Source: Shigella phage sb4
Strand: one strand, 5' to 3'
Length of the DNA: 64,000 nucleotides
Sequence record: PQ666542
Position numbers and translations under genes: made by a program. Positions 27,895 through 32,047 of the stretch are shown piece by piece. The notes beneath the pieces were generated by a model. It was not told the DNA's origin. It made no database searches and saw nothing but the letters and a program-made list of their open reading frames with translations. How positions within the stretch are numbered: position 1 is the stretch's first letter; each line of letters begins with the position of its first letter.

Positions 27895-27936
27895 TCAGTA
27901 AGATTATTATAACACAACACGAGGGACTTGTAAACT
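27895..27936 (-). promoter_or_regulatory. T4 early-type promoter (GTTTAC -35, TATAAT-like -10)
   Basis: Minus strand reads GTTTACAAGTCCCTCGTGTTGTGTTATAAT; part of a ~50-bp element repeated at 43640-43681. Confidence 0.55.
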
Positions 27937-29986
27937 ACATCTTGAACTTTTTAGACATTCCGTTGATGTTAACCAAAGAAGCCAAGATTTGAGAAACTTC
28001 GTTTTCCTCTTCTTTTGATTCTTCTTCAAGGAATTGATTAAACCCAGCCATTGGACGAACTTCACCAGTTTCCATTAGATGGTCGCCATCATATACCGAT
28101 TCTTCTAATTGTTCAGAATGAGGAACGATTGTGCCTTCGATTAGATACTTGTTATAAGCAGTTTCTTTCATCATGTATGTACTCACTTTATTAATCTTCA
28201 GCAAAATTCCACGCGGTGGAATTACTTCAGCTTCTGATGGAAATCCTGATAAATGACCTGGAACGATAACTTTAATTCGCTCAGCTCCTTTTATTACCAT
28301 GCCTACACTAGTTTCAGCATCTTAATTAGCATATGCATAATGACTACCCATATGCATTATATCTTCAGCATCAACAGAACCTTCTCCTTCACCAGAAAAT
28401 ACTGCGCCGGAATCATCTAGAGCCATATAGTTTTTACCATGCTCACCGAAGAGATTTGGTTTAAGCGATGTTGATACGAAGTTCTTAAAATAGAACATTT
28501 TATTTTCAATATTATGACGTAAAGTTTTAAAAGTAACTTCTTGTCCACGATAAAGCGTAGTTCCTGGAGGAAGAACTGAACCTTTGGCAAAGGCAGAATC
28601 CATTGTCTCTATGTGTTTAATAGCTCGTTCCATGTATTCTTCACGGGTAGAATCTGGTTTACCCAAGAGGAACGAGTTCATTTCAACATATGAATCTGCA
28701 CAATAATCTTCAATTACATCAGACTCGGCCTGAGTTAATCCTTTTGGAGTTACTTCGGTGCTTGCGTATTCATATGCCTGAGCAGCAGATTCATTAATCA
28801 ATTTATAAATGCTATTCATGACAAATTGAATAATAGCTACCTTTTCGTCTGGTGTGGCTTTAGAACCTTTAACTAAATCATTGATAATTTTCTTAATAAC
28901 ATCAAAGCTATTAGAAATATTAATGTCAGCGAGATCGCTTAAAATTTTATCAGTTTTATAATCAAAAAATTCTTTATTCTTTAAATATTATTGAGAACCT
29001 TGATGTGTTATATCGCTCTGCAGTCTGATAGACGGATCACGTAAACGTGCATGGGCCAATGCAATATGATTTCGGAAGCTTTCTAGTTCATAATCGTTAG
29101 ATTTAAAACGAGAAGCACTTCTCATACCACCGATAGCTCCTTTGCTGAAGTTTGAACCAATCTGAATAACGCCAGAGTTCATTGGTCCTTCTGCTTTATA
29201 TACCGGAACTTTAGATTCAAACTCTTGATATTTCTTAGCGGCGAAGCTATCACCCTGAAGTGAAGCATCGACAGTAGAATATTGAGCTTGTGCTGCTAAT
29301 CGACGACTAATTTTAGTTTTCTGAATAACAGCTTGATCCGTGCGCTTATCATTTTCTAAAGCAATAGAAGCAGCAACAGCTTTAGGAACAGCATTACCTG
29401 TTTTAACATCTACATAAACATCACCAACCTTTGATTCAACTTTTGTGAATAACTCAGTTGAAATAGGAGGTACACCTGGAATGTCTTCTAAATTGGCGTT
29501 TTTACGGTAAACCATAATATATGCATACTTTTTATCGTAATCCCAGATTTCCTTTAAAAGAACATATCGACCTGCTCCTTTAGTACGTACGAAACGGTCA
29601 GCAATAACTTGCATTTGACGAGCAGCGCCATTTGTTTTACTTTTTAGTACGCGGAATAGGCATGCGTCAATTTTATACTGTTTCATTGTTTGAAGAGCAG
29701 TATCAAAAACCGCATTAATGACACCAATTGGATTTCCACCCAAGTTTTTAAGTTTAACTAATGATAGTTTCTCATTAACACCTATCATTACGATATGCAT
29801 CATTTTATCGCCTGGCTTAACGTTTTTATTTGTATCACCGCCAGAAGTGTATGTACAAAATCTAAATCCAGGAAGCACACTTTCTTCGCCGGATTGAATA
29901 GCAAAAATTTGAGGTATTTTATGCTTAGGATTTAAGTTAACAACCGGCGCCGAAGCGCCGTCAAATAATTCTGTAATAAGTTCCAT
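27935..29986 (-). pseudogene. Second, full-length Alt-like ADP-ribosyltransferase paralog interrupted by in-frame TAA at 28988-28990 and 28322-28324
   Basis: Three ORFs (332, 165, 121 aa) in one frame with stop-free linkers; 684 codons. N-terminus MELITELFDG and the ART-like segment LYRGQ...FVSTSL parallel Alt. Confidence 0.75.
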
Positions 29987-29989
29987 GAT

Positions 29990-32047
29990 TTATCCTTGAA
30001 CGAACTTGTAAGGCATGTTTGTAATATCTATGCAAGACGCAATAATTCCAAGAGATGATTCTACTTTTTGTTTAACATTTGATGAAACAAATGTTGCAAA
30101 GTCAACTCTGTCTTCTATTTCAATATCACCTGTCATTGCAACTACTTCACCAGTTTCCATTAGACGGTCACCGTCATAAATTACTGATTCGGTGAGTTCT
30201 TCCGTAGTCATAACTTCAGCTTGAATAAGCTTGTTGTTAGTTTTAACTGTTCCATCATTGTAAGATGCGTCGGTTATTTTACTAACTTTGACCATTAATC
30301 CACGTGGCAAAATGACTTCCATTTCATTTGAATGCGCTAAACTTCCACCTGGTAAAACAACGTTGACTTTATCAGCCCCAGTAATAACCCATCCAATTCC
30401 AACTAAATTATCGCTAGAATTAACAAGCCCTTCATCATTTTTATCGACAGAAATATTTAGACGCTTTTCGTCTGGTAGAACCCCTACAGCTGAATCAGTC
30501 ATCCAAGTACCAAAAATGTTTGGATATAATGATGTTGATACAAAATTTCTAAAAAAAAAAACTCGATTTTTTACCATTGCTTCAGATATTGAAGGTAACA
30601 TTCTCTGTGAACGATATAAAGTGATACCCTTTGGCAGTCGATCACCATTTTTAAAGGCTGAATCTAAATTATCGATGGCTTGGTCTATTTCTGGTGCTGT
30701 TAAAATACTTGTACGTTCATCTAGATTATATAATCCCAAAAGAGCATTATCCATGTCTACATATCCTGAACCTACGTATTCAGGAATTCCACGTTTTTGT
30801 GCCGGTGTGTACTTAGACGGATCTTTATTTTCGACTATAGAATGCAATGACCATCCAACGGTAAGAGCATATCCACGTATTTCTCTTCGAATAATCTTTG
30901 TTTTTATTGCATTCCAAGAATTTTGTACTAACTCATTCGCAGCATCTTGATTTAAATGCGAATGATTGTTAATATTTCTTTCTAACCAAGCACATTTATA
31001 TTTTTCTAAATTATCATCGACTATAGAAGCAATAGTTTATAAAGTTTTTATTGAAGTAATATATTCTTTTCGTAATCTTTATAAAGATTTATTTTTTATT
31101 TATGTATTAACATCAGATTATTTATCTTCAGGAATTATAGAAGCTTCTCTGAATGCCATTCCAGCTGTAACACTATTAAGAGCATTCTCTAATGCAAATC
31201 CTGAAGTAGAAATAACAGTTAATTCATTAGCATCAGAAATTAAAGGCGCGTCAGCGGGTTTATTTAATTCTGCCGCTGACGCCTCAAATTTTTGAAACAT
31301 TGGTGTTTCAAATCTGGAAGATTCTAACGATTGACTTTGTGCAATTGCTCTACGGGAAATTTTAACTTTAACGATTACAGCTTGGTCAGAACGTTTATCA
31401 TTTTCTTGTGCAATAGATGCTGCAATTGCCTCATTTTTAGTTACTTGAGCTCCGGTATCTTTATTGATATATACATCGCCGACCTTCGATTCAACTTTAG
31501 TAAAGAGCTCGGTACTAATTTCCGGAACTCCTGGAATGTCTTCTAATGATACATTTTTGCGATGTTTAAGAATATATGCATACTTTTTATCATAGTCCCA
31601 GAGTTCCTTAAGAAGGACGTATCTGCCACCTGAACGACTACGGATAAGTCTATCAGCAATAAGTTGAATTTGACGAGCTTGACCAGCAGTTTTAGACTTA
31701 AGAATACGGAGCATGCAGGCATCAATTTTATATTGACGCATTGTTTGCATTGCAACAGTAAAAACTGAATTGATATAATTAATTGGGCTTGGACCGAGAC
31801 CTTTTAATTTAGCAATTGAACCTTTGGCAGTTAATGTAAAAGGAACAATATGCATCATTTAATCGCCCATCTTTAAATCGCGATTAGTATCACCTCCAGA
31901 TGTGTAGGTACATAAACGAAAGCCTGGTTGTTCAATTGCGTCATCAACATGAACTGAAAAAATTTGCGGTATTTTCTTCTTTGGATTTAAGTTTGTAATA
32001 GGAAGAGTAGTATCTTCGTCAAATAATTCTGTAATAAGTTCCATCAT
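29990..32047 (-). pseudogene. alt: Alt ADP-ribosyltransferase homolog interrupted by five in-frame TAA codons (31859-31861, 31118-31120, 31100-31102, 31079-31081, 31037-31039)
   Basis: ORFs 31859-32047, 31118-31858 and 29990-30847 are in the same frame; manual translation of the 30848-31117 linker shows three further TAA codons and otherwise Alt-like sequence; about 685 codons. Confidence 0.85.

Follow-up and report, generated by a model that had tools for sequence, protein, structure and literature searches.

Does the alt locus of a Shigella phage hold a second full-length ADP-ribosyltransferase (ART) gene beside alt, and what should be made of the in-frame stop codons that interrupt both genes? 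This question is raised by Shigella phage sb4 (sequence record PQ666542), in which we analyzed a stretch of 64,000 nucleotides, referred to here as the window. The window is a T4-type (Tequatrovirus) segment and along its full 64 kb aligns collinearly to Shigella phage pSs-1 (NC_025829.1, approximately 96.0–160.0 kb), with 96.9% identity, 1,942 mismatches and just 71 gap positions. Within it a single minus-strand frame spans positions 32047 to 27935 and holds two genes, alt1, the orthologue of T4 alt, and then alt2, a full-length second Alt paralogue; all features of the locus described below lie on this strand. Our best explanation, which we hold with good confidence as a whole, is that this is the standard T-even alt array, consisting of two tandem paralogues from an old gene duplication, and that the stops are errors or unselected substitutions of a kind spread across the window.

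Architecture and catalytic residues of the two paralogues

The alt1 gene (29990..32047) has 684 codons if read from the ATG at 32044 (MELITE) and 685 from that at 32047 (MMELITE), and it ends with a TAA stop codon at 29992..29990. A single codon, ATC, forms a 3-nt gap between this stop and the ATG of alt2 at 29986, exactly the spacing that an earlier note on this DNA had given. The alt2 gene (27935..29986) ends with TAG at 27937..27935 and measures 683 codons, close to the 684 of that note, and is the intact form of what remains in T4 as alt.-1 plus alt.-2. The count is 683 because one 6-nt GCTGTT unit that is present in relatives is absent; this in-frame loss of one Ala-Val repeat unit lies at about position 29381, as judged against pSs-1, Ec_MI-02, HP3 and SH7. 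Both copies do carry the MELITELFD N-terminus and in-frame stops that had been described for them, with five TAA codons in alt1 and two in alt2.

The relatedness of the two genes is best seen in their intact orthologues in pSs-1, which show 41% identity over their whole length (BLASTP E 1e-157), a similarity far beyond chance. The family phrog_802, "Alt-like RNA polymerase ADP-ribosyltransferase," matches residues 1–683 of alt1 (E 4e-263) and residues 1–685 of alt2 (E 8e-256), so that the possibility raised earlier, that alignment might show the second gene to be unrelated to Alt, can be set aside on the strength of an end-to-end family match and its 41% identity to alt1. T4 Alt (gpAlt, NP_049811) is the NAD+:arginine mono-ADP-ribosyltransferase that T4 packages and injects; the alt1 product shares 93% identity with it and 96% with pSs-1 gp210, and the alt1 gene lies in the same position as in T4, between alt.1/gene 30 and gene 54. 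The alt2 product is 98% identical to pSs-1 gp209 (YP_009111014) and 43% identical to T4 Alt. Precomputed annotation lists PF26846 for all members of the Alt family, NCBIfam has a family for neither alt1 nor alt2, and a search of PDB sequences with alt2 gave no match at E 0.01 or better.

Both proteins are about 685 residues long and share one architecture: a propeptide, (M)MELITE, an alpha/beta N-terminal domain, a helical middle, an ART domain of the R-S-E type and a disordered C-terminal tail. The paralogues are not equally alike along this length, with identities of 64–69% over the first 232 residues, 25% in the helical middle, 35–42% in the ART domain and 42% in the tail. In alt2 the shared N-terminal part (residues 1–232; 29291..29986) comprises the MELITE propeptide followed by the alpha/beta domain and is presumed to be the head-packaging module. 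The propeptide ends in an I-x-E site of the type cut by the gp21 protease. Such an (L/I)-x-E end, together with an LMETGE motif at the start of the disordered tail, was kept in all eight Alt paralogues that we compared, two each from pSs-1 and T2, one from T4 and three from phage AnYang. The LMETGE motif is encoded at 30155–30172 in alt1 and at 28064–28081 in alt2, at the place where the structural model turns disordered, and is a candidate site for the gp21 processing that T4 Alt is reported to undergo at its C-terminus. Thus alt2 is like T4 Alt in full-length architecture, propeptide, N-domain, R-S-ExE ART domain and LMETGE tail motif, but is only 41–43% identical to it, the differences including the middle region (25%) and the loop ahead of E-x-E.

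The ART domain was recognized in both window translations as PF03496, for which the Pfam gathering cut-off is 23.4 bits. It spans residues 374–614 of alt1 (30203..30925; 102.6 bits), where it is free of stops, and window residues 414–619 of alt2 (28133..28747; 67.9 bits), where it is split by the stop at 28324–28322; the intact orthologues score 117.9 and 72.7 bits, respectively. The catalytic residues are R478 (30613–30611), S503-T-S505 and E574-M-E576 (30325–30317) in alt1, and R480 (28549–28547), S505-T-S507 and E585-A-E587 (28234–28226) in alt2. In an alignment of the paralogues with T4 Alt, ModA and ModB, the R, S-T-S and E-x-E of both copies share columns with those of the T4 enzymes, which include EQE 163–165 of ModA and LYRG 71–74 and EQE 171–173 of ModB. 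Loss of these residues from the second copy, which the earlier note had named as the outcome that would count against its proposal, was therefore not seen. Furthermore, the catalytic columns (R482, S507, S509, E587, and E589) were invariant in an alignment of 21 family members.

Within the R-S-E clade, the arginine-specific members carry the signature E-x-E rather than Q-x-E. The second E of EQE 163–165 in ModA is E165, and that of the E-x-E in Alt is E577 if residues are counted from the upstream Met, a numbering that fits the 7-residue propeptide MMELITE. Replacement of either residue, in Alt E577A and in ModA E165A, abolished activity (PMC11404850). The loop immediately ahead of E-x-E differs between the paralogues (GHLSGFPSEAE in alt2, GGSLAPSNEME in alt1). 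We propose that alt2 probably encodes another arginine-specific ADP-ribosyltransferase, one that is carried in the head, is injected and has a different host target; of these features, the different ADP-ribosylation target is a reasonable expectation.

The structural prediction is consistent with an ART domain in alt2. The AlphaFold model of an alt2 orthologue (P0001) has a mean predicted local distance difference test (pLDDT) score of 74.5, with most of the ART region at 80–90, and divides into an N-domain (about residues 12–215), a helical middle (about 230–470), an ART core (about 475–625) and a low-confidence tail (629–685). In a Foldseek search of the PDB this model matched only R-S-E ART toxins (Vis, CDTa, Certhrax, C3, VIP2, and iota), the ART part doing so with a probability of 1.0 and template modeling (TM) scores, by target, of 0.55–0.68. 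The catalytic fold and the R/S/ExE signature are thus common to alt2, T4 ModA and ModB, and the C3/VIP2/iota-type toxins of the R-S-E clade (PF03496). Unlike Alt, however, ModA and ModB are early-infection proteins of about 200 residues that the phage does not package, the C3, VIP2 and iota toxins are secreted bacterial proteins, and all of them are without the Alt N-terminal packaging module.

Distribution of alt2 and its remnant in T4

The tandem pair is already known and is annotated in hundreds of T-even genomes. A DNA-level search with the 4.1-kb locus as query found 118 phage records covering at least 80% of it, and the best matches bore the annotation "Alt-like RNA polymerase ADP-ribosyltransferase (x2)" or its equivalent. 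When residues 231–685, the part specific to alt2, served as a tblastn query, 401 phage records matched at 95% identity or more; they include RB18, wV7 and a record in which the gene is called alt_2. The protein cluster of alt2 at 90% identity has 772 member sequences. The pair is intact in pSs-1, Ec_MI-02, HP3, SH7 and T2. Orthologues of alt2 with the same 3-nt spacing and 97–98% protein identity include pSs-1 gp209, T2 EcT2_00208, the alt_2 of vB_SsoM_113, HP3 gp056 and SH7 gp188; the window copy differs from these orthologues by its two in-frame TAA codons, the 2-codon deletion and about ten private amino-acid changes. Comparison of the locus in related phages therefore bore out the full-length duplicate, but the arrangement is not unusual; it is the common Tequatrovirus state (T2, RB18, pSs-1 and about 400 records). 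Duplications of alt, including a full-length one in phage 44RR, were noted by Nolan et al. (2006; PMC1524935).

The duplication appears to be old. In the Dhakavirus AnYang there are three tandem Alt copies, each 3 nt apart, and the third is the nearest to alt2 (51%), which indicates that the duplication predates the split of these genera. In T2 the first alt gene is followed by one for a 685-residue "hypothetical protein" that is 98% identical to pSs-1 alt2. The first T2 gene itself (AP018813, 7798–9891; 697 residues) is 73% identical to T4/pSs-1 Alt and 67% identical to the first AnYang copy. Since T2 alt1 has diverged in this way while its alt2 remains 98% identical to that of pSs-1, alt1 is mosaic among T-even phages.

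Both genes are under strong purifying selection in the intact relatives, as judged from their coding sequences. Among pSs-1, Ec_MI-02, HP3, SH7 and T4 the ratio of nonsynonymous to synonymous substitution rates (dN/dS) is 0.03–0.10 for alt1 and 0.03–0.06 for alt2, and these low values in the intact relatives argue that both paralogues have been maintained as functional genes.

The exception is T4 itself. The earlier note was right that T4 has just two short open reading frames (ORFs) at the position of alt2, alt.-1 (61 residues) and alt.-2 (67 residues; NP_049810 and NP_049809, phrog_23015 and phrog_15247), and a note in the T4 GenBank record states that these go back to an old duplication in which the first part of alt was copied. 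They correspond to the first approximately 116 codons of the window alt2 gene, at about 96–97% nucleotide identity. By BLASTN, T4 keeps nucleotides ~1–348 of alt2, in which a 1-nt frameshift creates the two short ORFs, and then jumps to the last ~20 nt of the gene; a 9-nt overlap of the two blocks (CTAAAAAGT) points to the loss of about 1.69 kb by deletion at a microhomology. This deletion, between two CTAAAAAGT copies, takes out all but the last few codons of the gene from about codon 117 onward. Thus the short ORFs of T4 are, by this comparison of sequences, the derived state, a deletion remnant of a full alt2 such as that of the window. The comparison was of the T4 remnant at 3066–3451 of L005 with 5062–7119 of L001.

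The genomic feature in itself therefore matters little, the pair being widely annotated and the duplication being mentioned in the T4 record. Of greater consequence is that what is known of Alt derives almost entirely from T4, which lost the second copy, while the T2-like phages have in alt2 a conserved, apparently active and probably injected ADP-ribosyltransferase.

In-frame stops and alternative explanations

Neither alt1 nor alt2 has an uninterrupted reading frame in this sequence. The five TAA codons of alt1 are at codons 62 (31861–31859), 309 (31120–31118), 315 (31102–31100), 322 (31081–31079) and 336 (31039–31037), and the two of alt2 are at window codons 333 (28990–28988) and 555 (28324–28322), the latter lying between the S-T-S and E-x-E motifs. 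In relatives all seven positions are AAA or GAA. The earlier note was right that there are stops in both copies, but these tell nothing specific about the alt genes: when every pSs-1 gene was mapped onto the window, we found 48 premature stops in 30 genes, that is, in 28 genes besides alt1 and alt2, with TAA, TAG and TGA all used. The interrupted genes include homologs of gp14, gp15, gp16, gp24, gp26, gp27, gp28, gp48 and gp37, DNA ligase, nrdA and td; examples of interrupted regions are rnlB (13771–14775), gp27/gp28 (22065–23718), ligase (32282–33742), nrdA (46530–48794) and gp37 (61351–64000). As essential virion genes are among those interrupted, the sequence as written cannot be that of a viable, plaque-forming phage.

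The substitutions in the window are also unlike those that separate natural T-even genomes. Of the changes private to the window, 23 of 41 in alt1 and 10 of 23 in alt2 affect the first or second codon position, whereas the private substitutions of control genomes are mostly at the third position. Transitions make up 65% of the window mismatches as opposed to 78–85% in natural T-even comparisons, there are 275 G>T/C>A changes vs. 127 in the reverse direction, and A<>T changes are in excess too; G>T is the class of substitution likeliest to create a stop in the alt genes (15%). The stops are clustered, with patches in which 3–4 of them fall in some 30 codons, and indels are nearly absent. We consider it most likely that the seven alt stops are part of an unselected, A/T-directed layer of substitutions, superimposed on ordinary divergence, that represents damage or an error of sequencing or assembly. 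The idea that a chemical or basecalling bias specific to one strand was the sole cause of the stops found no support, as both G>T and C>A are seen within a single strand and also on each of the two. Exact searches of IMG/VR with a 44-mer spanning two of the alt1 stops gave no matches, and the reconstructed intact 44-mer likewise gave none, so that the two results together say nothing either way. Exact-protein look-ups with the truncated alt2 ORF and with the gp29 of the window matched no public record.

Three other explanations have to be weighed against that of a standard alt array overlaid with errors. The stops could be real, with both alt genes decaying to pseudogenes in this lineage because Alt is dispensable. 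We think this unlikely, even though Alt is listed as non-essential (PMC9026906), most of alt2 has already been deleted in T4, and alt1 shares the top count of five stops with nrdA, which, with rnlA, rnlB, uvsW and td, is among the other non-essential genes hit more than once. Such decay would not account for the stops in indispensable T4-type genes, the homologs of gp14, gp15, gp16, gp26, gp27, gp28, gp48 and gp37, nor for the same A/T transversion skew across the whole 64 kb; its usual companions, frameshifts and deletions, are absent, and a synonymous divergence (dS) of only about 0.08–0.11 from intact relatives leaves little time for five independent nonsense mutations. It is less credible still that the stops are read through, by reassignment of a stop codon or by a phage suppressor tRNA, so that the genes are functional as written. 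All seven of the alt stops are TAA, which speaks for it, but the premature stops across the window include TAG and TGA as well, close relatives have ordinary sense codons at every stop position, and there is no tRNA gene within the 64-kb window. With genuine gene ends using the same codons (TAA in alt1, TAG in alt2), recoding or suppression was ruled out, and we give this explanation almost no weight.

A different kind of doubt concerns alt2 alone, which might be no enzyme but an inactive structural paralogue, a filler of the head core or a decoy that has kept only the Alt fold. Its PF03496 score is below that of alt1 (72.7 vs. 117.9 bits for the intact orthologues), in the ART domain it shares only about 35% identity with alt1, and we found no report of its activity in the literature. 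However, the R, S-T-S and E-x-E are all present and align with residues essential in Alt and ModA, the catalytic columns are invariant in 21 diverse family members, dN/dS is 0.03–0.06, and the predicted fold matches that of active ART toxins. We therefore regard an inactive alt2 as improbable, somewhat more so than decay of the locus and less so than readthrough.

Some observations nevertheless weigh against the explanation that we prefer, an array of two functional genes beneath a layer of errors. We infer the error account from the distribution of the stops, and that distribution is patchy, with none in 15.5 kb of the largest structural genes; non-essential genes are struck more often than essential ones, and alt1 ties with nrdA for the highest count, so a minor share of real decay in non-essential genes may be present. 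For alt2, our literature search found no experiment on, or functional study of, a second Alt paralogue, and therefore what we say of its expression, packaging, activity and target comes from homology. The LMETGE motif is likewise just a candidate for the C-terminal gp21 site in Alt. In practical terms, stop codons or odd residues anywhere in the window should not be taken as biology without a check against relatives.

Two other segments of the window depart from its average identity to pSs-1. A 205-residue ORF at 5780–6397, which lies between the genes for the tail sheath and the tail tube, shows 100% identity to pSs-1 over 618 nt, and the genes that flank it are 97–98% identical; the ORF may be a mobile gene acquired by recent transfer, and its perfect identity means that the substitution noise is not uniform. 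The block at 23715–26590, which holds the gp29 and gp48 homologs, is 91.7–93.3% identical to pSs-1, vs. about 97% for the rest, which suggests a mosaic recombination segment.

Proposed role of Alt2 and flanking features

Upstream of alt1, a motif scan found a T4-type late promoter box, TATAAATA, at 32068..32075, which is 20–23 nt upstream of the alt1 start codons and is followed by a GAGG Shine-Dalgarno sequence ahead of the gene. The sequence TATAAATA is the T4 late-promoter consensus. It is the sole late-promoter box between 27800 and 32200 in the scan, and alt2 is without a promoter of its own, having a Shine-Dalgarno-like AAGGA within the 3' end of alt1. Since no second box lies in this interval, alt1 and alt2 are probably co-transcribed late in infection from one promoter.

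In the mechanism that we propose, this single late promoter would drive both genes, and the shared N-terminal module would build both proteins into the prohead core, where gp21 would trim them before DNA injection carries them into the host. Such a pathway is consistent with what has been reported for T4, in which approximately 40 copies of Alt are present in the prohead core and gp21 cuts off a short N-terminal peptide (PMC9958956); for Alt a propeptide of 7 residues has been described, along with processing at the other end of the protein, the C-terminus (PMC9026906). Once in the cell, both proteins would move ADP-ribose from NAD+ onto arginines of host proteins, transfer to arginine being expected because the E-x-E signature indicates it. 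Alt1 would act as T4 Alt does, on the RNA polymerase alpha subunit plus other targets. Arg265 of RNA polymerase alpha is an example of an ADP-ribosylated host target. Alt2 would probably modify a different set of host proteins, because its middle region and the loop ahead of E-x-E have diverged.

We give about an even chance to the stronger form of this idea, in which Alt2 would be a functionally distinct injected effector, packaged beside Alt, that ADP-ribosylates another host protein at the onset of infection. Its target might then be, for example, a defense, RNA-metabolism or translation factor rather than RNA polymerase alpha. If so, this role would explain the strong purifying selection on alt2 in about 400 T-even genomes, and it would mean that T4, the model phage, is in effect a naturally occurring deletion mutant for alt2, which would account for the function having escaped notice.

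The gene order around the two genes, from gene 30/alt.1 to alt.-3/gene 54, is collinear with T4, T2 and pSs-1. Just upstream of the alt promoter, and overlapping the stop codon of the alt.1 homolog, a hairpin can be read from the sequence at 32081..32098 (AAAGGCC-TTCG-GGCCTTT), which is a probable transcript terminator or stabilizer; it was not among the matches of a scan for consensus terminators. Directly 3' of the alt2 stop codon there is an early-type sigma-70 promoter at 27906..27934 (TTTACA, a 17-nt spacer, TG, and TATAAT), with 11 of 12 matches plus the TG. This promoter serves the next gene downstream of alt2, the intact 96-residue homolog of T4 alt.-3 at 27584..27874.

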